From positions 90 to 64,089 of IMG/VR virus record IMGVR_UViG_3300035220_000425: DNA of 64,000 nt; one strand, given 5' to 3'. Both the position numbers and the translations under genes were made by a program. Below are positions 2,813 to 46,534 of this stretch, piece after piece; within the stretch, counting starts at the first letter, position 1; each line of letters begins with the position of its first letter. This DNA is from a virus. Taxonomy: Duplodnaviria > Caudoviricetes. Below the pieces are notes generated by a model. The model was not told where the DNA came from. It did not search any database and saw only the letters and a program-made list of their open reading frames with translations.

Positions 2813-2841
2813 CAGTTAAGAGTTTATACCTAATATGGTTT

Positions 2842-2872
2842 CAGGAGGTCCGTGGGGAGCCTCCTTTTTTTT
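2842..2872 (+). terminator. Intrinsic terminator
   Basis: AGGAGG...CCTCCT stem followed by T run. Confidence 0.7.
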
Positions 2873-2918
2873 GTCCGATCGCATTAGTAGATACACTGAA
2901 ATAGCGTCTAATTATTTA

Positions 2919-3350
2919 GTGGGCTTATTCGATCTGTTCTATTCTTCTTGTGAGCTAGAAGAATTCACAAGTATTCAGTGTCAAACTAAAAGCATGGAAT
3001 CAGAGATAGGCGGAACTTTGTCACAGTTCTGGCTGGCTCCAAATGGCATTCTTTATGTCATTGACTATAGTCACACCTCTGATTTTATAGAGATAGGTCC
3101 AGAGGATCCTCGTTACGATAAAGGGGCTAAGGCAAGCATCTATCGAGGCAATCAGTATCGGTGGCAGCCAAACGGTAATCATGGGAGAGTTCGATTCTAC
3201 CCTAAAACTGACTTCATAGAGATTTATCCTGATTCTTATGTAGGGGGATGGGAAAATTCACCTATTGCCCGGTTGCATTTTCTTGAAGGGGTGCTACAAG
3301 GTTATTGCATTTCAACAAAGGGCAAAGGATTTGACCATTCAGAGTTTTAA
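2919..3350 (+). CDS. Conserved phage hypothetical protein (MGLFD...CQTK...FWLAPNG)
   Basis: In-frame GTG at 2919 gives an MGxFD start; the track's start at 2835 lies upstream of a terminator. Confidence 0.7.
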   Translation: MGLFDLFYSSCELEEFTSIQCQTKSMESEIGGTLSQFWLAPNGILYVIDYSHTSDFIEIGPEDPRYDKGAKASIYRGNQYRWQPNGNHGRVRFYPKTDFIEIYPDSYVGGWENSPIARLHFLEGVLQGYCISTKGKGFDHSEF

Positions 3351-3363
3351 GGGCGTACATAAG

Positions 3364-3624
3364 ATGACAATTAACATTTACGATAGATTTGACGAGGCTT
3401 ACTCTAAAGAGCTCAGAAGCGTCTCAGTCGATCAAAAACTCTCATTAGTCCAGATGCAAGCCATGACCATTGCAGCGGCAGCAGAGGCTCTTGCGGACAC
3501 TTCTGACGGTCTTATAAACATTGAAGACCTGTATACAATTGTCACGGGGCTTTACGAGGAACATTATGAGTTCGAAAGGCTTATGAAACTCCACTACAAA
3601 AATAAAACCAATCGTCAATGGTAG
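3364..3624 (+). CDS. Hypothetical protein
   Basis: ATG 3364 within track ORF 3265..3624 avoids overlap with the previous gene. Confidence 0.6.
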   Translation: MTINIYDRFDEAYSKELRSVSVDQKLSLVQMQAMTIAAAAEALADTSDGLINIEDLYTIVTGLYEEHYEFERLMKLHYKNKTNRQW

Positions 3625-3627
3625 AAT
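3619..3627 (+). promoter_or_regulatory. Extended -10 promoter TGgTAGAAT for the riboswitch transcript
   Basis: TG-N-TAGAAT ends 7 nt before the first aptamer. Confidence 0.6.
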
Positions 3628-3633
3628 AAAGTA

Positions 3634-3858
3634 CGTTCACCTCGAAAGAGGCGGAAGTAAGACAACGCGGAACGGGTCCGTTCATTCCATGTTGGAATTT
3701 TTAATTGCCTCTATCGTCTCTTGCTCAGACGCTAAAGATGTCATAGACAGGGTTCTGCTTAACGAATCTTTGTCAAATAGCACCAAAGCCGAATTAGTAA
3801 GTGAATTGATCAAGCATTCGAAATGTGACAGGAACGCAACCGTTGACTGAAGGAACGC
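3634..3858 (+). ncRNA. Tandem glutamine riboswitch (glnA-like / Downstream-peptide motif)
   Basis: Unit 1: CGTTCA-CCTC-GAAA-GAGG-CGGAAGTAAG-ACAACG-CGGAACGG (3634-3676). Unit 2: CGTTCA-TTCC...GGAA-CGCAA-CCGTTGAC-TGAAGGAACGC (3679-3858). Lies upstream of a YRG peptide. Confidence 0.85.
3689..3850 (+). CDS. 53-aa protein encoded within the loop of riboswitch aptamer 2
   Basis: MLEFLIASIVSCSDAKDVIDRVLLNESLSNSTKAELVSELIKHSKCDRNATVD; the stop TGA is part of the conserved TGAAGGAACG. Confidence 0.7.
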   Translation: MLEFLIASIVSCSDAKDVIDRVLLNESLSNSTKAELVSELIKHSKCDRNATVD

Positions 3859-3896
3859 GCTTTTGGTGTAAAATTCACTTCTAGCGGAGCTTTCTC

Positions 3897-4037
3897 ATGT
3901 CTACACTGACTTATCGTGGTACACAGTACCAAACTAGATCAAACTATAACGAACTTCTCCTCATTCGCAAGAAGTTGAAGCAGCAGGAAAAAGAAATCCA
4001 AGTCCTGAAACAAATTGCTCGGGCTCAATACGATTAA
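3897..4037 (+). CDS. DUF4278-like 'downstream peptide', 46 aa
   Basis: MSTLTYRGTQY...; LTYRGxxY motif, GGAG RBS, directly behind the riboswitch. Confidence 0.85.
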   Translation: MSTLTYRGTQYQTRSNYNELLLIRKKLKQQEKEIQVLKQIARAQYD

Positions 4038-4046
4038 ACCACTAAA

Positions 4047-4071
4047 CAGGCCCTTTTGGGCCTGGTTTTTT
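4047..4071 (+). terminator. Intrinsic terminator
   Basis: CAGGCCC-TTTT-GGGCCTG plus T run. Confidence 0.85.
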
Positions 4072-4112
4072 CCTCCGTTAGACTTTTGGAAGACTAATTC
4101 AATGGTGCCAGC

Positions 4113-4424
4113 ATGAGCGCAGAGGACCAGAAAAAGAAGACTTTGTATCTTTTTAGGACTGGAGAAACAACATGCGTTTCTCATGATAGTTATATTCAGA
4201 TGGGAGCCATGTCTCATTCTGTTGAGCATCATATTAAACTAAATCCAAAAATTAATTGGGTAGAAACACACTGGTTGCCTGACATCTTCAAAAACAGATA
4301 CAAACGGGCCTCGTTTCAGGCTCATGAGAGAGTATCGGGAGGAAAAGAAAGCATTGAAGAGAGACCTCGAGATTTTCCGGAGGAAGGAGCGTCAAGAGGT
4401 CTATTGAGTGGTAAACCTATTTAA
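4113..4424 (+). CDS. Hypothetical phage protein
   Basis: 103 aa; late-type motif GGAAGACTAA at 4088. Confidence 0.65.
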   Translation: MSAEDQKKKTLYLFRTGETTCVSHDSYIQMGAMSHSVEHHIKLNPKINWVETHWLPDIFKNRYKRASFQAHERVSGGKESIEERPRDFPEEGASRGLLSGKPI

Positions 4425-4451
4425 AATTTGGAAAAATAGACTAGGCATCGT

Positions 4452-4961
4452 GTGATCATGGCCAGTCCTCTATTAGCATATGCCAATTCCCGAGTCAGGG
4501 TAAATATAACCGATGTAGTAGTAAGAGACGCAAACGGTCGATTGACTGTTAATGATACGAGCTACTATTTAGTTGTTTGTTATTTAAAAAGAACTCAATA
4601 TTCTGGGGTGACCTCTGGATCAAGAAAGATCCCATTAGCCTCTGAACTGTTTGGGGAAATGCTTCCAGGCGCGAGTGCCGATGAGTTTTACTACAGAGGA
4701 TATGCACTGCAGTATGTGGCTATAGCAGCAGATGATGACTGGACTTCGATGGATTTAGTGCAGTCCAGTATGACCGACATAAGTACAAATCAAAGCTATT
4801 TTCAGCCAATGAAGGAAGTTGATCTTTTCTTTGGAGCCGAGGAGATGAGAGCAACTATTCAAAGGTGTACTGGAGTCTTTGGGGGAGAAGGTATAGACAA
4901 AATTATCTATCCAAGTATCGGACTACAATTACAACTAACTGCTGCAGAAATACTTAATTAA
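4452..4961 (+). CDS. Putative head closure/neck protein
   Basis: Size and position before a gp10-like gene; likely start ATG 4458. Confidence 0.5.
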   Translation: MIMASPLLAYANSRVRVNITDVVVRDANGRLTVNDTSYYLVVCYLKRTQYSGVTSGSRKIPLASELFGEMLPGASADEFYYRGYALQYVAIAADDDWTSMDLVQSSMTDISTNQSYFQPMKEVDLFFGAEEMRATIQRCTGVFGGEGIDKIIYPSIGLQLQLTAAEILN

Positions 4962-4966
4962 GTGAC

Positions 4967-5542
4967 ATGGCAAATAAATCAATACGTAAAGTTATTAAAA
5001 ATTTAGAACAATTGCAGCGAGAAATGAAAAGACTTGAGAGGAAAGAAAAATTCAAGATACCAAGCCCTGCGCCAGATATTAAAGGGATAGGCCTTAACAA
5101 AGTGCTGAATGAATTTCGTGACTTAGTTAAAACTATAGAAGGGATGGAGGAAATCTTTGAAGAATGTGTAGACCAGGCTGCTGAAGAAATTATTCCTTTG
5201 TTGTCTGAGGCCCTTGACGAGGCTATGGAATCGTCTATTTGGCCTTGGGATGGCTCAACTCGGGACATTGTCGATACGGGCGCTCTCAGGGACTCTAAAG
5301 ACGTTTCTTGGAACAGTGGAAAGAAGTCTATTGTGATTCAATACAATGAACCGTACGCTGACTTAGTCCAGTATGGCGGATATATTAAGTCTGGATATAA
5401 CCCGAAGGTATCAATATACATTCCTCCTCGGCCATGGATTGATGCAGTCATTTATGGGGGGCATGGTATTCAACAATTCCCTTTTTACGAGTTAGTGCAA
5501 CGTCGAGCTATGGAGTTATTGAATAAAAAGATTGAACTGTAA
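4967..5542 (+). CDS. HK97 gp10-like neck/tail completion protein
   Basis: DIVDTGALRDS, PYAxxVxYG and PPRPW motifs. Confidence 0.75.
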   Translation: MANKSIRKVIKNLEQLQREMKRLERKEKFKIPSPAPDIKGIGLNKVLNEFRDLVKTIEGMEEIFEECVDQAAEEIIPLLSEALDEAMESSIWPWDGSTRDIVDTGALRDSKDVSWNSGKKSIVIQYNEPYADLVQYGGYIKSGYNPKVSIYIPPRPWIDAVIYGGHGIQQFPFYELVQRRAMELLNKKIEL

Positions 5543-36590: not shown

Positions 36591-39500
36591 ATGCCCGATT
36601 TTGTGATCAAGCTAAGAAGATCGGGGACTACGGGCAATACTCCTGATGTTAATGATTTGCAATTAGGCGAATTAGCTGTAAATACTTATGATGGTAAGCT
36701 TTTTTTAAAAAAAGATGATGGAACCCCGGGCGTTATCGAAGTTGGGCAAGGATGTGACTTAACATGGACTGCAAGTACTAGAACTATATCTTCTAGCTCA
36801 GGGAATAATGCTGTCATAACTAATGTTACGACAAGTAATTCTGGGCTTATGTCCAGTACAGATAAGAGCAAGTTGGATGGCATAGCTGCTGGGGCTGAAG
36901 TAAATATAGGGACTGGCTTAAGTTACGTAGCTAACAGTCGAGAAATCCAATCATCTACTGGGGGCAATGCCACGCTGCCTGAAGTCGTAGCGGGCAGTAC
37001 GTCAGGACTTATGACGGGTTCGGACAAGACTAAGCTTGACGGGATAGCCACTGGCGCCGAAACTAACGTAGGGACAGACTTAACATACACTTCAGCTACA
37101 AGATCATTGAACTCATCTACGGGTTCAAATGTAGCGCTACCCCTTGTTGGTGCTGGCGGAACCGCTGGCTTAATGTCAGGGACTGATAAGACAAAGCTTG
37201 ACAGCATTCAATCGAATGCAGAAATTAATGTAAAAGCGGATTTTAATGCAACATCTGGTGACGCTCAGATCTTAAACAAGCCAACTATTCCAAGCAATCT
37301 TGGAGACTTAAGTAACGTAGATTCTACTACTCCTGCTAATGGTCAGGTCTTGACATGGGACGATACTAATTCTTACTGGGAAGCTGCAGATGCAGTAGCA
37401 GTAGCAGATTCAGGTAATGCTGATACTGTAGATAATCTACACGCATCTAGTTTCTTAAGGTCCGACACGTCAGACAGCATGACCGGATCCTTAACCGTAT
37501 CCGGGAATGTTTCCGCAGCCGGTACGATTTCTACCTCAGGACAAAACACCATAAATGAAGCCAGCACATTAAAATTTAGTCAAGAAACTACAACTCTTTC
37601 TCAAATCAGAGCTTACGGCTCAAATGCTTCTACGTTTGGAAGTCTTGAGTTTAAAGTTGGTCCTAGCACCGGAGCACCTCATACTCCGCTGACATTAACC
37701 AGTACAGGGGGCGCCATATTTACGGGTGATGTTCAAACAGGGGAGCGTGTTTATAGGACAGGTAAAACTGGTTTCTATCTTGACGCTACTTACATTCTTC
37801 CTGTAAAAAATGGCGCAGAATCAACCGATGGCTCAGTTAATTTTGGCAGTGCAACTTACCCTTTTGGATCCGCCACATTTGCGGGACGCTGTAATTTTGG
37901 TAGTAGTAGCGTTGCCGATGTTTCTGGCAAATTTAGCAATAGTGACGCAGCGTCAGCCACTTTATACGTCACAAACCATAACGCTTCAGGCACTCTTTTT
38001 TCAGGAAGAAATTCAAGCAACACTGAAGTAATTGATCTCGGAGTGGATGGAGCCGCCACATTTGCGGGGTCTGTCTACTCAGGAGGTGAAGCCTATAATG
38101 GTTCAGCTAATGGCGTCAGGCTGTATGAAAGCGGCACGATCTATGCGTCCAGATCCTCATCCAACGTTTTTACTGGATATACGACCGGAAGCTCAACGGA
38201 GACAAGCGTCATCACAGCCGCAGGAGCCGCCACATTTAAGGGTACCGTGTCAACAGAGAATTATTACACAGTTGATCGTAACATAACTCCTGGTACCGGC
38301 GCTTTATACCTAGGTTTCACTCAAGGAGTTCAGAAGTTTAAAGTAGGAACCGATGGATCCGCCACACTTGGGGGATCGATTGATTTAACCGACAGTACGG
38401 TAGATCTTTATTCACAAACTACCAACGCAAATTCAAAAACTTTTCAACTGTTTTCTGATATAGGCGGAACAAAAGTAGAAAAAGCCTTCATCAAAGCATC
38501 AGGCGACGCCACATTTGCCAATATTTATACTGATGGATGGTATAGAAATAATCAGGCAGGTGAAGGTTTATACAACCAATCAACTGATTCACATTTTTAC
38601 AGTGCCGGGTCTAACTATTGGCACATAAATGGAGACGATGGGGCATTGGGGGGCGGGGGTTTGATTCTTTATGATCGGTACCAACCAACGCAGGCCAGCG
38701 CAACTGGAAGAAAGGGTTATTTGTATTGGGACTCGACTGGCTTTGGTCTATTAAGTAATAATGGATCTTGGGCGTACCGACATAACAATACTCAGGCCGA
38801 TATTTATGGCACAATCAGGCAAGGCGGCACTAACATCGTCTGGCACGCAGGAAATGACGGCGCAGGTTCAGGCTTGGATGCTGACTTGTTAGACGGATTG
38901 CAAGGTTCTGTTTATATGAACAAGGGCTCTAGTAGTTCTTATTATCAGCCTGATAATTGGATTGATTTTAATACAACTAATGACGGTTTATATTGGTCTG
39001 GAAGCACGTCGGCTGGATGGCACATTTACCCAGCAGACGCTAATAACATGCGATTCAGAACGTCAGGCAATACATGCGGCTTAAGGCTGGATACCAATAA
39101 TGGCACTATCAGAGGGGTTCTTTATGCGGACAACAGCAATAACATTGGCATCTTGAACCAGAACGGAAATTGGCGGCTAAAATGTCCATCTAGTGGCTCA
39201 CTTTCTAGGGATGGTACCCAAACGATCTGGGACTCAGGTAATGACGGGTCGGGGTCAGGCCTAGATGCTGACACTGTAGATGGTGTGCATGCATCATCAT
39301 TCATACAGACAGATTCTAGTGGCAATTTATTATTGGCCGATGGAAAAGCTATTTTCATGTCAGGATTTACAGATGCTAATACTTTTAACATAGCATCATT
39401 GTTCGTTGATGCAATTAAGTGTGGCAACCTCCGCATTCATGATGGCCGCGAAACAACCGCCGGATCTGGCTTGATGCACAACACGATAATTGGAAATTCT

Positions 39501-40283
39501 GCTAGAACATTTACTACTGCTAGCGGAGATGTTAATACAGTAGTTGGGTCGTTTGCTGGTTACAGCATGTCTACCGGCCACGAAAACACTTTGATAGGAG
39601 CTAGGGCACAACAAGCGGTTACGACAGGTGGTTATGGGACTTATGTCGGTGTTGATGCAGGAAAAAATAAAAAATATGGTGATTACTGTACTGGAATTGG
39701 CTACAGATCAGACTTTTACACTACCGGTGGTAGCACTAACAATACTGAAAACTATTCAAATACAACCTGCCTAGGGTATGATTCTCGACCTAGTGGTAGC
39801 AATCAAGTGGTTGCTGGTAACACAAATGCTACCTTGCATTATTATGGTTTAAGTAACCGATCTGATGAACGTGACAAGATTGATATACAAGACGAATTCC
39901 TCGGATTAGATTTTATCAAAAAATTAAAACCGCGTGCTTATAAATGGGATTACCGTGATAATTACTTTGATGAGGTATTTGACGAAGTAGAAAACCCGGA
40001 CAATCCCGGCCAATTTGACAAAGAAGCAAGGCTTGTGCCTGTGCCTAAAGACGGGTCTCGCAGTGGTACTCGTTTACATCACGGTCTAATCGCACAAGAG
40101 GTAAAAGAAATAATTGATGAAACAGGCGTGGATTTTGCAGGCTATCAAGATAGTAAAGTCAAAGATGGTCAAGATGTTTTAAGCATGAACTATTTAGAAT
40201 TAATAGCACCTATGATCAAAGCAATTCAGGAGCAACAGGTGCAAATTGACTCTTTGAGTAAAACGATTGAGTCGATGAAATAA
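36591..40283 (+). CDS. Tail fibre A with C-terminal peptidase S74 chaperone
   Basis: GLMSxxDKxKLD x3, GSGLDAD repeats, GxATFxG junctions, SDERDK...GLIAQEV. Confidence 0.9.
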   Translation: MPDFVIKLRRSGTTGNTPDVNDLQLGELAVNTYDGKLFLKKDDGTPGVIEVGQGCDLTWTASTRTISSSSGNNAVITNVTTSNSGLMSSTDKSKLDGIAAGAEVNIGTGLSYVANSREIQSSTGGNATLPEVVAGSTSGLMTGSDKTKLDGIATGAETNVGTDLTYTSATRSLNSSTGSNVALPLVGAGGTAGLMSGTDKTKLDSIQSNAEINVKADFNATSGDAQILNKPTIPSNLGDLSNVDSTTPANGQVLTWDDTNSYWEAADAVAVADSGNADTVDNLHASSFLRSDTSDSMTGSLTVSGNVSAAGTISTSGQNTINEASTLKFSQETTTLSQIRAYGSNASTFGSLEFKVGPSTGAPHTPLTLTSTGGAIFTGDVQTGERVYRTGKTGFYLDATYILPVKNGAESTDGSVNFGSATYPFGSATFAGRCNFGSSSVADVSGKFSNSDAASATLYVTNHNASGTLFSGRNSSNTEVIDLGVDGAATFAGSVYSGGEAYNGSANGVRLYESGTIYASRSSSNVFTGYTTGSSTETSVITAAGAATFKGTVSTENYYTVDRNITPGTGALYLGFTQGVQKFKVGTDGSATLGGSIDLTDSTVDLYSQTTNANSKTFQLFSDIGGTKVEKAFIKASGDATFANIYTDGWYRNNQAGEGLYNQSTDSHFYSAGSNYWHINGDDGALGGGGLILYDRYQPTQASATGRKGYLYWDSTGFGLLSNNGSWAYRHNNTQADIYGTIRQGGTNIVWHAGNDGAGSGLDADLLDGLQGSVYMNKGSSSSYYQPDNWIDFNTTNDGLYWSGSTSAGWHIYPADANNMRFRTSGNTCGLRLDTNNGTIRGVLYADNSNNIGILNQNGNWRLKCPSSGSLSRDGTQTIWDSGNDGSGSGLDADTVDGVHASSFIQTDSSGNLLLADGKAIFMSGFTDANTFNIASLFVDAIKCGNLRIHDGRETTAGSGLMHNTIIGNSARTFTTASGDVNTVVGSFAGYSMSTGHENTLIGARAQQAVTTGGYGTYVGVDAGKNKKYGDYCTGIGYRSDFYTTGGSTNNTENYSNTTCLGYDSRPSGSNQVVAGNTNATLHYYGLSNRSDERDKIDIQDEFLGLDFIKKLKPRAYKWDYRDNYFDEVFDEVENPDNPGQFDKEARLVPVPKDGSRSGTRLHHGLIAQEVKEIIDETGVDFAGYQDSKVKDGQDVLSMNYLELIAPMIKAIQEQQVQIDSLSKTIESMK
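37866..38519 (+). repeat. Five in-frame GGNNNCGCCACAYTT junction repeats (fibre A)
   Basis: Copies at 37866, 38049, 38223, 38355, 38502. Confidence 0.85.
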
Positions 40284-40314
40284 CTGGTATAATGAAAGCA
40301 GCTAAATTACTAAA

Positions 40315-40488
40315 ATGGCTGAAACCAACCCTGAACTCACAAAGCTTCAAGAGTCTCAAAAAGTCCTTATTAGCGAGATTGAATCGCTAAACTCACAAGC
40401 AATGCAAAAACGTGAATTGCTTTTGAAGTATCAAGGAGTTATTGAGTATCTAAGTGCTCGGGAGGCTCAAGAGGAGTCAGATGAATAA
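40315..40488 (+). CDS. 57-aa coiled-coil protein, likely fibre assembly chaperone
   Basis: MAETNPELTKLQESQK...LLKYQGVIEYL; TGgTATAAT extended -10 at 40285-40293. Confidence 0.7.
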   Translation: MAETNPELTKLQESQKVLISEIESLNSQAMQKRELLLKYQGVIEYLSAREAQEESDE

Positions 40489-40542
40489 TAGTGTCAAAAT
40501 AATGGCAATATAACATAGCAAGACCGCCAAAGGAGACGATAA

Positions 40543-43500
40543 ATGACAGACACTACTGTCAAACTTAAAAGAAGTTCGACCTCTGGCGGCGTTCCAAATA
40601 TTTCGGATTTATCTCTGGGTGAGCTAGCAGTAAACACTTTTGACGGTAAATTATTTTTCAAGAAGGATAATGGAACCGCGTCGATCATAGAGGTTGGATC
40701 CGGCAGTGGTGGTGGTAGCGGGCCTTCAGCAGCAGTTAAGGTCTTGCTTTATGAAAAGACAAATAGTGGGAACGCTGACAGTTTTGATGGATCAGAGACC
40801 CAATTTCAACTACGCGACGATAGCGGCACAGTTATTAGCAACCTTTCGTCAGCATCTCAACTATTAATTAGCATTGACGGGGTAGTCCAAGAGCCTAATT
40901 CAAGTTCATCAGGCACTGACGGTTTCTATATTTCAAACACGGCAAGCGGAACAGACATTATCTTTCTAGCAGCCCCTGCATCGGGCTCAGATTTTTTCGG
41001 CATGGTGGGCATCCTTAGCGGAAGCTTTGCGACGGTTGCTACTTCAGGCGATTACGACGACTTAACGAATAAACCAACGTTATCTCCAGTAATGTCTGTT
41101 GCTGGTAAGACGGGTACGGTAGCACTGATACAGAGTGACATTGGTAGTGGCGCTGTAACTGCCACTACAGGCACCTACGCAAACGGTGCTACGTTTGGGG
41201 ACAGCGTAGGGATTGGCGGCTCACCAACTGGAGCCTTTGGTGCTATTGACAAAGGACTTTTGATTACTGGGACAAATACTTCAGTAGGACTACGTGTTCA
41301 TACATCTCATGGCAATTCCGGCATTTTAGAAATGTACGCTGAAAGCGGCGGATGCGTTTTTGATACACGCGGCAGTGACTATATTCGATTCGCAAGCGCC
41401 GGAACTGAGTTCATGCGAATCGATAGCTCGGGCAGCGTCAGTGTTGGTAGTACAGCCACATCTGGCACAGGTGTGCATCTCCGTCCATTTGGTAATGTTA
41501 TTTCACGCAGGGCTAGCGGTTCTTTGCAAGTCTTCGAAGGATATCAAGGGTCAACTTTAACTTCTGAGATCCTGGCTAATGGCAACGCTAGGTTTGGGGG
41601 CAAGGTAGGTATCGGTTGCACACCTGTTCGAGATCTTCAGTTACATACTTCTGACGCATCAAGTGAACTGATGCTTTCAAATAGCACTACTGGAGCAACC
41701 GCAGGTAGTGGCTTTATGATCCAGCAGGATGGTAACGATAATTATATTTGGAATAAAGAAAATAGTTTTATGTCGTTCGGGACTAATGCTCTCGAGCGGA
41801 TGCGAATCGACAGCACGGGCGACTTAAAGCTTCAGTATACGGGTAAGTTTATTCTGACTGAAGGTACTAATAGCGCTTTTTCAATATCCACAAACGGTGC
41901 AAATGGTCATTTTCTGATTAGAGATGAATATAATAGTTCAGATCGAATGATAATTAACAATTCTGGTCGCGTTGGAATCGGAACATCAAATCCCTCCCAT
42001 GCGTTACATGTAACTGGGGATATTAGGGCTGGCACAACTTCATATAATGATTACGGAATCAAAGCTTATACGAACTCTGCTTCTTATGGTGGAATCTATG
42101 CACAAAATAACAATCCCTCTGGATTTGTGTTCACTGGAAATAATGGTTCAGCCAACACAATTCTTATCAAGGCTGACGGGAAAGTTGAGACTACTGGCAG
42201 TGGCTCTTTCTATACAGTCAACCGCACAGGCACTCTATCTCCGACTGCTGCCTTATATCTTGGATTTGCTGATGGCAGTCAAAAGTTCAAGGTTGGAACT
42301 GACGGAACGGGGACATTCGCTGGCAAGCTTGGCGTTGGAACCACGACCCCAGCAAAAGACCTAGAGATTTTTAATGACAGTTTCCCGTGTCTCATGCTGA
42401 ATGATGGCAATCAGTATAAATCTTATATGCAACTAGGTGGCAATGACTTAGAAATTCGAGGAAGTTCAGGAAAACTTGAGTTTTACACAGGTGCAGCCGA
42501 TGGCTTGTCATCAGACGAGAGAATGTGCATTACTAACGCGGGCAAGGTTGGAATTGGTAACGCAGATCCAGGTGCTTTACTTCAGGTAGCAAACTCCAGC
42601 AACCACGGTGTAGTTCGTGTTGGAGGAAACAATGATGGAGCGACTGGTCTTGACATTAATTACTCAAATGGTGGCACTACCTCTACAACTATTAAGCAGA
42701 ATTACCGCGCAACTAATGGAAATGCATTATTAAATATTGATACTGGTATCTTTACGGTTTCGACCGGAACTAGTGGCGACGAGCATATGCGAATCGATGG
42801 CACGGGCAGGTTGTTAGTAGGTACGACTTCACCAACAACATCTAGCGTTACAACACGAATAAGTGCTTATTCAGATACTAATGACTGGATGTTGATGGAC
42901 ATTGGAGCCACACAGAGTGGCAATACGGGTGGAGTTTATGGAGTCAGGAGTAGATCAGCATCAAACAATCCGATTGCCGTAGCTAGTGCTTTTGAAAGTG
43001 CTACTGAAGTTGTATGTTATTACGGTGGTGGTTGGGGTGGTTACGGTCGATCGGCTAATAATTTAAGGTTTTATACATCCGCCGCTGTAGATAACGCATC
43101 TGGAACATCTGGGAACGAGCGAATGAGGATTCGCCCGGATGGCAGCGTGCTTATTGGCACTACTACCGCTTCCTCTCATGGGAATAGACTTCTACAGATT
43201 GGAAAAACAGACAGAAGTGAGACTTATCTAGAACTTAGAACGGCAACAACTGGAGTATCAGGACTTTTATTTAGCAGAGGAACTGGTGGAGGCACATCAG
43301 GATACAAAGGGACTATTGAATACAATCAATCTAGTGACTATATGCTGTTTAAGACTGAACATACCGAGCGGATGCGAATCGACAGTAATGGTACATTGCG
43401 TACTCTCATGACGGGTGGTTCAGGAAGACTTCACCTTGCAACTGATCAAGGGGCTGGAAGTACTATTCTTTTAAATGTTGTTAACAGTAGGACTGTCATT

Positions 43501-43908
43501 AATAGTGGTGGTTCTGCATCTTGCAGGATTTACTCAGACGGTGATATTGAAAATAGCAACAATTCCTACGAAGTCCTCTCTGACGAAAATTTGAAAGAAA
43601 ACATTGTCGATGCAAATTCACAATGGGATGACATCAAAAGCTTGAGAATCCGTAAATTTAACTTTAAAGAAGAAACAGGTAATTCAATGCACACGCAAAT
43701 TGGTGTTGTTGCACAAGAGGTTGAACTTGTTTCCCCAGGATTGGTCAAAGTCAGACCTGCTCTTACCGAAGAAGGTGAGGAAGCAGGAGATACGGTTAAG
43801 ACTGTTAGCTCCTCTGTGCTCTACATGAAAGCAGTCAAAGCTCTTCAAGAAGCAATGGAGCGGATCGAAACCCTTGAGCAGCGTTTATCTGATGCTAGTA
43901 TCGCCTAG
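40543..43908 (+). CDS. Tail fibre B with ERMRI repeats and C-terminal peptidase S74 chaperone
   Basis: GELAVNTFDGKLF N-terminus; seven ERMRI-like units; SDENLK...GVVAQEV. Confidence 0.9.
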   Translation: MTDTTVKLKRSSTSGGVPNISDLSLGELAVNTFDGKLFFKKDNGTASIIEVGSGSGGGSGPSAAVKVLLYEKTNSGNADSFDGSETQFQLRDDSGTVISNLSSASQLLISIDGVVQEPNSSSSGTDGFYISNTASGTDIIFLAAPASGSDFFGMVGILSGSFATVATSGDYDDLTNKPTLSPVMSVAGKTGTVALIQSDIGSGAVTATTGTYANGATFGDSVGIGGSPTGAFGAIDKGLLITGTNTSVGLRVHTSHGNSGILEMYAESGGCVFDTRGSDYIRFASAGTEFMRIDSSGSVSVGSTATSGTGVHLRPFGNVISRRASGSLQVFEGYQGSTLTSEILANGNARFGGKVGIGCTPVRDLQLHTSDASSELMLSNSTTGATAGSGFMIQQDGNDNYIWNKENSFMSFGTNALERMRIDSTGDLKLQYTGKFILTEGTNSAFSISTNGANGHFLIRDEYNSSDRMIINNSGRVGIGTSNPSHALHVTGDIRAGTTSYNDYGIKAYTNSASYGGIYAQNNNPSGFVFTGNNGSANTILIKADGKVETTGSGSFYTVNRTGTLSPTAALYLGFADGSQKFKVGTDGTGTFAGKLGVGTTTPAKDLEIFNDSFPCLMLNDGNQYKSYMQLGGNDLEIRGSSGKLEFYTGAADGLSSDERMCITNAGKVGIGNADPGALLQVANSSNHGVVRVGGNNDGATGLDINYSNGGTTSTTIKQNYRATNGNALLNIDTGIFTVSTGTSGDEHMRIDGTGRLLVGTTSPTTSSVTTRISAYSDTNDWMLMDIGATQSGNTGGVYGVRSRSASNNPIAVASAFESATEVVCYYGGGWGGYGRSANNLRFYTSAAVDNASGTSGNERMRIRPDGSVLIGTTTASSHGNRLLQIGKTDRSETYLELRTATTGVSGLLFSRGTGGGTSGYKGTIEYNQSSDYMLFKTEHTERMRIDSNGTLRTLMTGGSGRLHLATDQGAGSTILLNVVNSRTVINSGGSASCRIYSDGDIENSNNSYEVLSDENLKENIVDANSQWDDIKSLRIRKFNFKEETGNSMHTQIGVVAQEVELVSPGLVKVRPALTEEGEEAGDTVKTVSSSVLYMKAVKALQEAMERIETLEQRLSDASIA
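41407..43385 (+). repeat. ERMRID junction repeats with DNA core ATGCGAATCGA
   Basis: Core at 41413, 41800, 42787, 43372; diverged copies at 41941, 42517, 43117. Confidence 0.8.
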
Positions 43909-43954
43909 CTCTTTCTGCTAGGCAGACTAGTGAAGATTTTTAGCCCTAAGTCAG

Positions 43955-46534
43955 ATGGGATTAAGTAAAATTAGCGGCTCGGGTATTGATGACAATGTAA
44001 TTGTACCTGCAAATCTACATTCTAGCTTTGTTCTACCTATTTCAAAACTTGCGACCGCTGGGGGTGTCACGTTTAATACGCTAGTTCAATGTGGTGGCGA
44101 CCCTAATGATGGCAGTGCTGTTGGGGCGAAGATGCTTCAAAGTGGGGTTATTCAGGCAACTAGAGCGTCTGGGTCAGGAACCAGTGCTGTTTATATGGGA
44201 TTTTTGCAGGGGACTTCTACTGCGACTTCAAGGATTAATGCAAACGGCAGTGCTACGTTTAGTGGTCAAGGTACTTTTAGTGGGGACTTAAGGGTTCAAG
44301 ATGGTGGAAATTTCAGAGTACGTAATGCTAGCAATGCAACTCAAGACGCTATTTTGCTCCAGAACAATGGCAACATAACAGCGGCAGGAGGAGCCACATT
44401 TGGTAGCGCAGTAAATGGACTTTATTTTTCAACAGACAGAACCAACGGCGGTAGTACTGTTCTTGAAGGCTACTTAAACGGCACAAAGAACGTAGATGTT
44501 AAGGCGAATGGCAGCGCCACGTTTGGCAATACAATCACATCGGGTTCCTCAACTGTTCGTGGTCAATTTCTAGGCAATTGTCCTTCAAGCATTACAGCAT
44601 CGGCCGCCGACGCTTTTATTGCTGATTACAATGGAACTACAGTCGCTCGTGTGAGATACGATGGATCCGCCACATTCAATGCCGGCAGCACTTTTGCTGG
44701 AATATGTGGGGGTTCGGCAGGAATTTACGTTGGAGACGCAACAACAACTAACCAAGGCAACGCCAAGGCTCGCATCAATTCCGACGGCAGTATCACTACT
44801 GTTAAATACATTACGAGCACTCGTTTCACAGTTAATGGTGCTCTAAGTTCTAATGTAAATGGCGTTAACTATCCTTTTGCTGCTTATGACGGCAGTAGCA
44901 ATCTTTATGCGTCGATTACCGAATCCGGGGACGCCACATTTGCTGGTGATGTAAATATCGGTAATTCGGCTAAAAATGCACAGTTGGCGGTTGGTGGTGT
45001 ATACAACCAAGTTGGTTTAGCGGTTAGTGCTGGTGGAGCCAGTTACTCAAATTGCGCTGAATTTTATAATTCAGGTAATGTCCTTGCTGCATCAATCGGA
45101 GGGGATGGAGCCTCCACATTTAAGGGAACGGTTACCAGTGGTGGGAATCCAGCCAGTGGTGCAGCCAGAGGTACTTCAATCAATGAGTACGGTACTTTAA
45201 GGGCTGCGAATACAAGTGGCACCGTATTTGAAGGCTACACTGTAGGGACTGCAGCAACCACTTCGCAAATAACAGCGGCAGGAGCCGCCACATTTGCGAC
45301 CAAGGTTACCGCCCCAGATTTTGATTCAAATCATCCAAATGATAGCAGATTCGGAAGATTTAACTGGGCAGGTATTCGTTTCACAAATACTTCTGGCAGC
45401 AACGTATTTCAGTTTGATGCTGATGCCGGTCAAATCACAACAAATGTTAAATCTGCTGGCCATATAGAACTTGACTCCACTGGATCTTTTAGTAGCCCTA
45501 AGGTAAAACTATTTGCTAACACTGGTGCCGCCACATTTGCGGGTACGTTGAACGTAGGTTCTGTTCTTACCGCTAGTGGAGGTTTTCGTGCTAATTCTGA
45601 GGGTACAGTCTTCATCAACCCTGCATCATCTTTAGCAAGTACTGCAACTGTATTTTCAGCCTACGTAGATAGGTCTACTGGTACAGCGACGGCAGTAACA
45701 TTCACGAAAGCAGGATCCGCCACATTTGCGGGTGTTCTTCAAGGTAATCAAAGAGTTGTAGTTAACGGTGCTGGGGGTAAATCAGGAACTGCAAATACTT
45801 TCTTGAACTATGCTGGAGACGCAACGACAGTAACAGCATCAATCGATGCTAATGGCTTGGGTGTTTTTGATGGAGGAGTAAGAGTTACGCATACAGCAAA
45901 TACAAGGCATTGTCGCATGCTTTATGACGGCATATATTCCACCGGTCAGGATCTGTATCTTTGGACAGGTACTACAAATAGCGTAATTTTTGGCAATAAC
46001 AGTTCAGCAAAAATGATGCTCCAGTGTTCTACTGGCGCTTTATTAATTAACCGCACTTCCCAGAATAATCTTGGCAAGCTTTGTCTGGACTTTTACGGCC
46101 AAACAGAAAACGGAATTGTTATAAAAAATACTTGGAATGCAAATAATGCCTACTTCGCTGTTTTTAGGAGTCAAGGTAATCACTTGGCTGGGGGCATTAT
46201 ACAAACGGCTTACAATGCAGTTAATTACAGCAGTGGCTCTGACTACCGCTTAAAAGAAAATGTTATCGACATGCCTGATCCCATTGTTCGCATCAAAAAA
46301 CTGAAGCCAAAACGCTTTAACTTTATATCCGATATTGACAAGAATGAGGTCGATGGATTTCTTGCCCACGAAGCACAAGAAGTCGTACCCGAAGCGGTTG
46401 TAGGAGAAAAGGACGGCAAAGAAATGCAATCCATTGACCACAGCAGATTGGTCCCGCTACTCACTGCTGCTTTGAAGGAAGCAATATCAAGCATCGAAGC
46501 ATTAGAATCAAGGGTGAAGACCCTTGAAAGCTAA
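43955..46534 (+). CDS. Tail fibre C with C-terminal peptidase S74 chaperone
   Basis: GxATFxG junctions; SDYRLKEN...GFLAHE. Confidence 0.9.
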   Translation: MGLSKISGSGIDDNVIVPANLHSSFVLPISKLATAGGVTFNTLVQCGGDPNDGSAVGAKMLQSGVIQATRASGSGTSAVYMGFLQGTSTATSRINANGSATFSGQGTFSGDLRVQDGGNFRVRNASNATQDAILLQNNGNITAAGGATFGSAVNGLYFSTDRTNGGSTVLEGYLNGTKNVDVKANGSATFGNTITSGSSTVRGQFLGNCPSSITASAADAFIADYNGTTVARVRYDGSATFNAGSTFAGICGGSAGIYVGDATTTNQGNAKARINSDGSITTVKYITSTRFTVNGALSSNVNGVNYPFAAYDGSSNLYASITESGDATFAGDVNIGNSAKNAQLAVGGVYNQVGLAVSAGGASYSNCAEFYNSGNVLAASIGGDGASTFKGTVTSGGNPASGAARGTSINEYGTLRAANTSGTVFEGYTVGTAATTSQITAAGAATFATKVTAPDFDSNHPNDSRFGRFNWAGIRFTNTSGSNVFQFDADAGQITTNVKSAGHIELDSTGSFSSPKVKLFANTGAATFAGTLNVGSVLTASGGFRANSEGTVFINPASSLASTATVFSAYVDRSTGTATAVTFTKAGSATFAGVLQGNQRVVVNGAGGKSGTANTFLNYAGDATTVTASIDANGLGVFDGGVRVTHTANTRHCRMLYDGIYSTGQDLYLWTGTTNSVIFGNNSSAKMMLQCSTGALLINRTSQNNLGKLCLDFYGQTENGIVIKNTWNANNAYFAVFRSQGNHLAGGIIQTAYNAVNYSSGSDYRLKENVIDMPDPIVRIKKLKPKRFNFISDIDKNEVDGFLAHEAQEVVPEAVVGEKDGKEMQSIDHSRLVPLLTAALKEAISSIEALESRVKTLES
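44387..45732 (+). repeat. Eight in-frame GCCACATT-type junction repeats (fibre C)
   Basis: Copies at 44387, 44510, 44663, 44927, 45107, 45281, 45524, 45713. Confidence 0.85.

Follow-up and report, generated by a model that had tools for sequence, protein, structure and literature searches.

How can a riboswitch work when an entire protein-coding gene lies inside its ligand-binding domain, and what would translation of that gene mean for the sensor? The question is raised by positions 3634-3858 of a 64,000-nucleotide (nt) stretch of viral DNA (Duplodnaviria; Caudoviricetes), positions 90 to 64,089 of IMG/VR record IMGVR_UViG_3300035220_000425; this whole stretch, which is nearly all of the 64,089-base record, is referred to below as the window. 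A first-pass annotation, made from the letters alone, had described a tandem glutamine riboswitch here, with a complete open reading frame (ORF) enclosed by the second aptamer and a pseudoknot joining the two aptamers, and had proposed that ligand binding and translation gate one another. In our analysis, positions 3634-3857 read as a two-aptamer glutamine-type (glnA, type 1-like) riboswitch whose predicted ligand is glutamine. The anatomical part of the earlier description, comprising the tandem switch, the whole gene in a hairpin loop of aptamer 2 and the pairing between aptamers, is strongly supported because compact ORF-less homologues exist, the loop-closing helix covaries, a covariance model matches across the ORF, and a bridging pair covaries. 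The locus thus appears to be a known riboswitch class in a new architecture, and as a deduction from sequence the architecture is well supported.

Anatomy of the two aptamers

All elements of the two CGTTCA...GGAACG units lie at the positions that the first-pass annotation gave them. Unit 1 (3634-3674) is the sole match to CGTTCA-N8-38-GGAACG in 64 kb, for which 0.09 matches are expected and at least one occurs in 8 of 100 shuffled sequences. The elements of the switch are as follows.

3634-3674, + strand: aptamer 1, compact; the full RF01739 model aligns at 30.4 bits
3634-3638 with 3670-3674, + strand: P1 of aptamer 1, the CGUUC/GAACG closing helix
3640-3643 with 3648-3651, + strand: P1a of aptamer 1, an ordinary hairpin with a GAAA loop
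3652-3659, + strand: junction of aptamer 1, CGGAAGTA
3660-3667, + strand: bridge strand a, AGACAACG, with 3841-3848 as its proposed partner
3679-3688, + strand: 5' half of aptamer 2, placed by alignment to model R1 (described below) and invariant in 17/17 relatives; P1 CGTTC 3679-3683, A3684 and P1a TTCC 3685-3688
3689-3850, + strand: nested 53-codon gene (phrog_504; T4-GC 430-like), filling the P1a loop, its last seven codons being aptamer core
3831-3857, + strand: 3' half of aptamer 2, placed by the R1 match at 3675-3861; in order, GGAA (P1a) 3831-3834, the CGCA junction 3835-3838, bridge strand b 3841-3848, GAAG 3849-3852 and GAACG (P1) 3853-3857
3841-3848, + strand: bridge strand b, CGTTGACT, which takes in the last two sense codons and the first base of the stop codon

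The P1 closing helix (CGUUC/GAACG) is present in both aptamers, in aptamer 2 as 3679-3683 paired with 3853-3857, and is invariant in 33/33 aligned sequences; since P1 never varies, covariation is uninformative on it either way. Both aptamers carry a hairpin, P1a, directly 3' of CGUUCA, and in aptamer 2 this helix closes 142 nt. The type 1 consensus has a CGGAAGUA junction and a GAAGGAACG 3' strand. Aptamer 1 has CGGAAGTA at the junction, but CGCGGAACG replaces GAAGGAACG; aptamer 2 matches GAAGGAACG exactly and has CGCAAC where CGGAAGUA would stand, and in the Rfam alignment a compact homologue shows a 2-nt deletion at the junction. At gathering thresholds, Rfam returned no match in the whole window. 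The RF01739 score of aptamer 1 (30.4 bits, E 1.6e-4 in 701 nt) lies below the cut-off of 35, and relaxed thresholds added a weak partial match of 23 nt at 3839-3861 (11.5 bits, E 0.6). The other glutamine class, Glutamine-II (Downstream-peptide, RF01704; cut-off 33 bits), was missed by aptamer 1 at 14.6 bits (E 0.58), and compact relatives also scored under that cut-off (22-32.1 bits).

The relation of aptamer 2 to an ordinary aptamer is apparent from its relatives. A scan of viral contigs for a 16-nt motif of the 3' core gave at least 118 stretches, and together with loci collected earlier at least 122 distinct contexts. Both aptamers are compact in at least 39 loci, aptamer 1 is compact and aptamer 2 carries an ORF in at least 66, the reverse arrangement occurs in at least 5, and each aptamer houses an ORF in at least 10; at least one locus has a single ORF-bearing aptamer with aptamer 1 absent, and at least one is cut by a contig end. 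In its compact form, aptamer 2 runs from CGTTCA through a short hairpin, CGCA and three bases to GTTGACTGAAGGAACG. On RF01739, two such copies exceed the cut-off (40.8 and 39.1 bits) and two fall just short of it (34.4 and 34.2 bits). Unit 2 of the window has the same parts in the same order, and the sole difference is the ORF that replaces the hairpin loop.

The first-pass annotation had a TTCC/GGAA stem enclosing about 140 nt, and TTCC (3685-3688) and GGAA (3831-3834) do enclose 142 nt that open with ATG at 3689. Among the matches listed, all 73 distinct ORF-bearing aptamers have at least three contiguous pairs between the bases after CGTTCA and those before CGCA. The helices are family-specific: TTCC/GGAA in the window's family, and TCTAT/ATAGA, TCACTAT/ATAGTGA, TCTC/GAGA, TCCTTA/TAAGGA, TCCTCAA/TTGAGGA and TCCCATG/CATGGGA in others. 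Cognate strands form 5.6 pairs on average versus 3.5 for non-cognate strands (48 distinct strand combinations; permutation 0/10000). Alignment A2 combines 28 compact aptamers with 9 that bear an ORF and excludes the window's family; in it both bases change in 5/6 P1a pairs, 93.6% of cells pair, and the covariation measure is 0.278 versus 0.109 after shuffling (0/500), and at most 0.09 with the partner strand slid. A second helix analysis found 4/5 aptamer 2 P1a pairs covarying with 98.8% paired, and in aptamer 1 all three P1a pairs have changed on both sides in relatives, with 100% paired.

From A2 we built a covariance model, R1, of 51 positions and 13 pairs, and used this loop-tolerant model in place of an Rfam search with the loop deleted. 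R1 spans 3675-3861 at 37.2 bits, aligning 51/51 positions and accommodating the ORF as an insert within the P1a loop; the E-value, to be taken as rough, is 2e-10 in 1.5 kb searched unfiltered and 9e-9 in the window as a whole, which gives no other match with E up to 10. By these alignments, aptamer 2 appears to keep every conserved core element.

The first-pass annotation had proposed a pseudoknot of 7/8 pairs between the two aptamers. AGACAACG (3660-3667) and CGTTGACT (3841-3848) are complementary at seven of eight positions, as proposed, and the pairing also covaries. In the Rfam alignments each of these motifs falls where an aptamer would have its small P2 hairpin. The terminal pair, equivalent to G3667:C3841, is paired in 166/171 distinct tandem loci and takes three Watson-Crick types: T:A in 125 loci, G:C in 20, the window's family among them, and A:T in 12. 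A further 9 loci have T:G, and 5 are unpaired, at least two of these apparently through parsing slips. This position pairs in 35/38 distinct combinations (permutation 0/20000). On alignment A4, 87.9% of the cells of the 8-pair bridge are paired, the terminal pair being U:A in 18, A:U in 5, G:C in 4 and U:G in 2 sequences. Pairing of the same motifs within each aptamer, as P2 hairpins, was rejected because no covariation accompanies it; those pairs hold in 136 and 138 of 171 loci, and 11 and 10 of 33 sequences are unpaired. A contact between the two aptamers, the mark of a glycine-like dual aptamer, is supported here by covariation only. The predicted inter-aptamer helix is supported but not settled.

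The nested gene and its relatives

The nested ORF ends in ...AGG AAC GCA ACC GTT GAC TGA, and the part from AAC GCA to TGA is the ending that the first-pass annotation had located within the 3' strand of aptamer 2; the GGAA, the stop codon and the next AGGAACG are all there. The translated product matches phrog_504 (E 4e-11), residues 1-47 aligning with profile positions 1-48 of 53, and gp205 of phage P-SSM7 matches the same family at 1.8e-19. Homologues occur in 17 viral contigs at 45-96% protein identity, and 69 distinct homologues all keep two cysteines, C12 and C46. The earlier reading would have fallen had the ORF not been conserved; it is conserved and under purifying selection, with a median ratio of nonsynonymous to synonymous substitution (dN/dS) of 0.16 in the window's family (13 sequences, 42 pairs). 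Three other families have ratios of 0.15, 0.27 and 0.49. These values were computed pairwise over the central codons, with the first 4 and last 8 left out. AlphaFold2, supplied with the homologue alignment, predicts a two-helix hairpin (mean predicted local distance difference test score, pLDDT, 76.8). By the measure of its conservation, the nested ORF is a real, selected gene.

At its two ends the gene follows different rules. Across 17/17 relatives, hardly any change is seen in the flanks and in the codons at either end of the ORF while its body diverges, and third codon positions vary in 39/41 core codons, 1/4 first codons and 1/8 last codons. Going by this pattern, the ORF ends are under RNA constraint, with synonymous sites frozen where they overlap the aptamer. 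In one subgroup (L008-L011 and L124), a one-base insertion makes the frame end in LERKR-stop instead of WNAHVD-stop with the nucleotides kept, so the conserved thing there is the RNA and not the peptide tail. The ATG of ORF-bearing loci lies 3-8 nt past CGTTCA, in or abutting the 5' strand of P1a, and the loop contains no separate leader or Shine-Dalgarno sequence. In 87/89 ORF-bearing loci, among the matches listed, the frame ends in the core; in L051, one of the two exceptions, it runs about 12 nt past the core as read by eye.

A second sample was drawn through the protein instead of the RNA motif. Searches with two other nested proteins gave 110 loci, and removal of 22 duplicates, 2 loci cut at the 5' end and 1 without a stop in the locus left 85. 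In 83 of these 85 distinct loci, CGTTCA lies just 5' of the ATG and the stop codon falls within an aptamer core. The commonest core in this sample is the GCCGAC variant (54/83), which escapes the 16-nt motif, so the first scan understates how common the arrangement is. The only free-standing homologue among the 85 (L322, 301-477, a viral contig; MYHILL... family) lacks the aptamer halves and has a promoter-like TAATAT upstream, its own terminator and a different C-terminal tail. In the other of the two exceptional loci (L248, 301-560), the stretch from the middle of the aptamer 2 core to the start of the DUF4278 gene is lost and the nested ORF reads into the next gene, which may be a natural deletion or an assembly error.

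Searches for the function of the nested protein gave no Pfam match, one relative without a name among protein clusters, only unnamed viral clusters in the Atlas, and nothing at E <= 0.001 with Foldseek against the PDB. Two specific candidates were rejected. A lipoprotein signal peptide, considered for the IVSC motif, is at odds with an N-terminus that is too short and acidic and with other families that have no lipobox, and a glutamine-codon sensor peptide is at odds with a window ORF that has no Gln codon. The start codon of the nested ORF also falls in the loop of a local hairpin, TTCCA-TGT-TGGAA (3685-3697), which shares its 5' strand with the long-range P1a. All members of the window's family have this hairpin unchanged and several other families, for example L050 and L065, do not have it; it may be part of the switch.

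How far does the arrangement extend? Going by the loci described above, the gene-in-aptamer arrangement is widespread in marine cyanophages. A 116-nt query from P-SSM7 located the module in 71 phage records, and several cultured phages carry it:

P-SSM7: gene 205 (T4-GC 430) in aptamer 2; gene 206 is the DUF4278 peptide
P-HM1 (179, 180, 181): an annotated coding sequence in each aptamer, then the peptide gene, as read in the P-HM1 sequence
P-SSM4 (169.2, 169.3, 170): an annotated coding sequence in each aptamer, then the peptide gene
S-SSM7 and S-BM1: one nested ORF each
S-8S55: an ORF in aptamer 2 and apparently another in aptamer 1, by eye
P-SSM2, S-PM2 and S-CREM1: compact

Among the phages inspected, a 'glnA riboswitch' is annotated in S-CREM1 only, and the nested genes are annotated only as hypothetical proteins. 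In S-BM1 (L245) and S-8S55 (L246), at about 298-620, the tandem switch with its nested ORF has shorter cores (CGCAAACGACTGAAGGAACG), and the bridge motifs, AGTCG/CGACT, are again complementary.

A second nested family of about 65 residues (...HW...C...YF..KV...C; T4-GC 429) occupies aptamer 1 in L037, L042, L094, L112, L137 and L242 (P-HM1, 47-277). It ends in ...IGRK, with a TAA stop within the CGCAAGTAAG junction. Proteins of this type also occur in an aptamer-2-type core, with a different tail, in L045 and L067.

A scan of prokaryotes, one genome per species, for the 16-nt core gave 100 matches. As 99 of them are chance matches, we do not claim a cellular counterpart. The single match with an aptamer junction (L146) lies on a 7-kb contig of a Prochlorococcus single-cell assembly and is followed by a DUF4278 peptide; it is probably phage DNA from an infected cell.

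Two genes under one proposed switch

The remaining features of the unit lie on either side of the aptamers.

3619-3627, + strand: putative extended -10 element, TGGTAGAAT, read from the sequence; overlaps the stop codon of the upstream ORF
3858-3861 (CGCT) with 3883-3886 (AGCG) and 3865-3868 (GGTG) with 3876-3879 (CACT), + strand: conserved hairpin, present in minimum free energy (MFE) and centroid folds and kept in relatives
3886-3889, + strand: Shine-Dalgarno sequence GGAG, 3' of the conserved hairpin
3897-4037, + strand: downstream 46-codon peptide gene (MSTLTYRG...), phrog_5049 E 0.0068
4047-4072, + strand: intrinsic terminator, with a stem region at 4047-4064 (7 base pairs, 6 of them G-C) and then a T run

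Transcription from TGGTAGAAT would start just 5' of aptamer 1. The element was not called by a promoter consensus scan that requires a -35 box; a similar block lies 5' of aptamer 1 in relatives, and in compact relatives a promoter-like TTGACT-N17-TAnnAT site is found there. Positions 3858-3889 are presumed to be the expression platform of the downstream gene, and a search of it for a convincing anti-Shine-Dalgarno pairing found none. The switch and its genes form a small self-contained unit of about 440 nt closed by the terminator.

The peptide encoded at 3897-4037 appears to be a DUF4278/IF17-like product, presumably under the control of the leader. Peptides 3' of the switch in relatives have 36-54 residues and mostly two (T/V)YRG motifs. 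Against PF14105 (DUF4278, cut-off 25.3 bits), those of P-SSM7, L026 and L050 score 30.3, 25.9 and 25.5 bits, and other positional homologues 22.9, 19.8 and 17.2. The resemblance to the type 1 switches of cyanobacteria (RF01739, for example the Synechocystis gifB leader) extends over the CGUUC/GAACG helix, the hairpin after CGUUCA and the DUF4278/IF17-like gene downstream, and in part over the purine-rich junction and the GAAGGAACG 3' strand, and by analogy with gifB a translational ON switch would be expected here. Departures from RF01739 are the gene in one hairpin loop, the inter-aptamer helix in place of the P2 hairpins, the CGCA... of aptamer 2 in place of CGGAAGUA, and the location on a phage. 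According to Klähn et al. 2018 (PMC6212724), both glutamine aptamer types precede DUF4278 genes in cyanobacteria, DUF4278 marks the glutamine-synthetase inactivating factor IF17, and the glutamine switch turns on DUF4278/IF17 translation, with binding proposed to free the ribosome-binding site.

Taken together, a model for the switch emerges, and the combination of a split aptamer over a selected gene, a bridge, exclusion between translation and folding, and opposite control of two genes is the reading we consider probable. The long-range helix of 3685-3688 with 3831-3834 would close P1a over a 'loop' that is itself the 53-codon gene, and the 8-nt helix of 3660-3667 with 3841-3848 would tie the aptamers together in place of the small P2 hairpins of single aptamers. 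A ribosome initiating at ATG 3689 would need about 3670-3705 single-stranded, which covers the 3' strand of aptamer 1 P1 and the 5' strands of aptamer 2 P1 and P1a, and one terminating at UGA 3848-3850 would cover the bridge strand, GAAG and the P1 3' strand. Ribosomes on the nested ORF would thus occupy the 3' side of aptamer 1 and, in aptamer 2, P1, P1a, the bridge and the core. From this footprint we infer that on one mRNA the nested gene can be translated or the sensor can be folded, but not both at once. At high glutamine, the ligand-bound sensor would hide the nested start codon and open translation of the downstream peptide as in gifB; at low glutamine, the nested protein would be made instead. 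Whether the bound sensor both represses the nested gene and opens the downstream one is a structural argument from geometry that we regard as roughly evenly balanced. The fuller proposition is of one cooperative two-aptamer glutamine fold, bridged, over one or two nested genes, with opposite control of two-cysteine proteins at low glutamine and the IF17-like peptide at high glutamine; we hold it tentatively and would sooner doubt than assert it. If it were true, the phage would read the nitrogen state of its host and toggle two small effectors from one 440-nt transcript.

A number of observations weigh against the model as a whole. Aptamer 1 misses the RF01739 cut-off (30.4 versus 35 bits), aptamer 2 as a whole goes undetected by Rfam and carries CGCAAC where type 1 has CGGAAGUA, and the tolerance of R1 for long inserts was learned from ORF-bearing relatives, its E-values being rough. 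P1a in the window comprises just 4 pairs, followed by an A-A mismatch, to close 142 nt, and the local 5-base-pair hairpin at 3685-3697 competes with it; thermodynamic folding of 3628-3910 gives no support (z = 0.20), and that of 3826-3910 is uninformative (z = -1.25). The bridge rests mainly on one covarying pair and includes a conserved C-A mismatch, and the commonest class, with GCCGAC-type sequences on both strands, pairs at 6/8 positions only. The window peptide misses the DUF4278 cut-off, with no Pfam match, and keeps the first YRG motif only; S-BM1 and S-8S55 have a different kind of gene downstream, not DUF4278-like (MNTLTLIKNQ...; T4-GC 937 in the S-BM1 record). The fixed 16-nt motif of the 3' core supplied most of the loci. 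RNA-library contigs cover 3804-3984, 3865-4015, 3932-4165 and 4070-4220 at a depth of 3-4; this cover, limited to 3804-4220 and low in depth, cannot prove transcription, ends or strand, and its absence over 3300-3800 carries no meaning.

Could the gene simply be a hitchhiker in a permissive loop? It would then sit there for genome economy and for the promoter of the switch, the level of its product would be independent of glutamine, and the long-range helix would be kept only so that the riboswitch works once ribosomes clear. The P1a loops of compact copies vary freely in length and sequence, ORFs are found in either aptamer, compact and ORF-bearing forms coexist, and the free-standing homologue L322 implies that the protein does not need the switch. 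Set against this are an ORF that always fills the loop completely, has no leader or Shine-Dalgarno sequence of its own and takes its stop codon from the core, and the 83/85 protein-sampled homologues that are nested, a proportion hard to explain by chance landing. The placement of the ATG 3-8 nt past CGTTCA, with no leader in the loop, favours coupling over such hitchhiking, which we consider rather unlikely.

It is improbable that the locus comprises two ordinary units, with aptamer 1 alone regulating the nested ORF through CGTTCATTCC in its expression platform, 3831-3889 an independent regulator of the peptide gene, and no aptamer across the ORF. That view would account for Rfam seeing aptamer 1 and the weak match at 3839-3861 only, for MFE folds that do not favour the long-range helix, and for a local hairpin that can sequester the start codon; yet the hairpin is missing in other families (L050, L065), P1a strands 150 nt apart covary, R1 aligns all of its positions across the ORF, and compact relatives join exactly both halves into an aptamer reaching the Rfam cut-off. 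Least credible to us, and very improbable, is that functional overlap is lacking altogether, aptamer 2 being a decayed relic broken by insertion or the ORF an untranslated spacer. The departure of the aptamer 2 junction from the type 1 consensus fits decay, but across myoviruses and siphoviruses the two halves hardly vary and show compensatory changes, the ORF has its dN/dS of 0.16, invariant cysteines and a PHROG family, and, among the matches listed, 87/89 ORF-bearing loci end the frame in the core.

The favoured reading, a split and bridged aptamer over a selected gene, has partial parallels. Peripheral loops of group I introns, such as those of phage T4 td and nrdB, house homing-endonuclease ORFs, and the intron can function only if a helix closes over the ORF. 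In both systems a gene lies in the loop of a structured functional RNA and the translation start overlaps RNA structure; here the RNA is a ligand sensor without splicing, and the product is a two-cysteine helical hairpin of 50-70 residues instead of a nuclease. Another parallel is with leader-peptide attenuators (trp, erm) and dual-function RNAs (SgrS/SgrT, RNAIII/hld), where the RNA structure that forms depends on whether ribosomes occupy a short ORF and one transcript serves as both regulator and message. The present system differs from these in encoding a conserved protein instead of a sensor peptide, in the absence of Gln codons from the window ORF, and in the position of the ORF within the ligand-binding domain. 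Tandem glycine riboswitches consist of two homologous aptamers for one ligand that contact each other upstream of one gene; fold and ligand differ from those here, where the contact is a Watson-Crick helix supported by covariation only. The compact tandem switches of T4-like cyanophages (S-CREM1, P-SSM2, S-PM2) are directly homologous in their two aptamers, 2-4 nt linker, cores, hairpin with Shine-Dalgarno sequence, and peptide gene, and differ in that their loops contain no ORF.

Weinberg et al. 2010 reported tandem glnA RNAs and RNA motifs of cyanophages, and the literature mentions phage glutamine riboswitches in cyanophages and in the OM43 phage Melnitz. In Sherlock et al. 2022, 157 glutamine doublets are classed as independent 'pseudo-cooperative' units, candidates with intervening ORFs or long gaps are discarded from the doublet survey, and the glycine riboswitch is listed as a 'dual aptamer'. 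Full-text searches of the literature, with supplements outside their scope, turned up no account of a glutamine aptamer that houses an ORF, nor any of a helix joining the two aptamers, and the gene-in-aptamer arrangement seems to be previously undescribed. Riboswitch aptamers are treated as compact non-coding domains, and a conserved, translated gene within a ligand-binding domain would be a new coupling of sensing to translation. The arrangement would give context and regulatory logic to conserved cyanophage genes that have carried the label hypothetical ever since T4-like cyanophages were first sequenced (T4-GC 429, 430 and 541 in record notes), and it suggests that tandem glutamine aptamers may be one bridged sensor rather than two independent ones. 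It is directly testable in cultured phage-host pairs, with P-SSM7, P-HM1 or P-SSM4 on Prochlorococcus.

Source virus and genomic surroundings

Genes for a terminase, a primase, a DnaB-like helicase, an endolysin and tail proteins lie in the window. The helicase shares 47-50% identity with its counterparts in the Synechococcus siphoviruses S-CBS2 and S-CRES1-3, and the source is an S-CBS2-like Synechococcus siphovirus. A blastn search with 3000-4500 found no match among phage records.

The switch unit is placed among structural genes, including that of a tail-completion protein at 4967-5542. Upstream lie a thioredoxin/glutaredoxin-like ORF at 2531-2812 (Thioredoxin_2 E 1.6e-4, under the cut-off; phrog_22) and, just before the unit, a phrog_1615 protein at 2835-3350; an ORF at 4113-4424 (phrog_1134) follows 3' of the terminator. 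Very large + strand ORFs in 8987-30304 and 36591-46534 (1497, 1436, 978, 1817, 675, 1230, 1121 and 859 residues) presumably encode tail or fibre proteins.

Among related contigs, PhotoRC-II RNAs (62-84 bits) and a manA RNA (173 bits) were found in L026 (1397-1492), L073 (5997-6089), L074 (181-279) and L050 (3979-4170). We take both to be known cyanophage RNA motifs, and their presence confirms the cyanomyovirus nature of those contigs.

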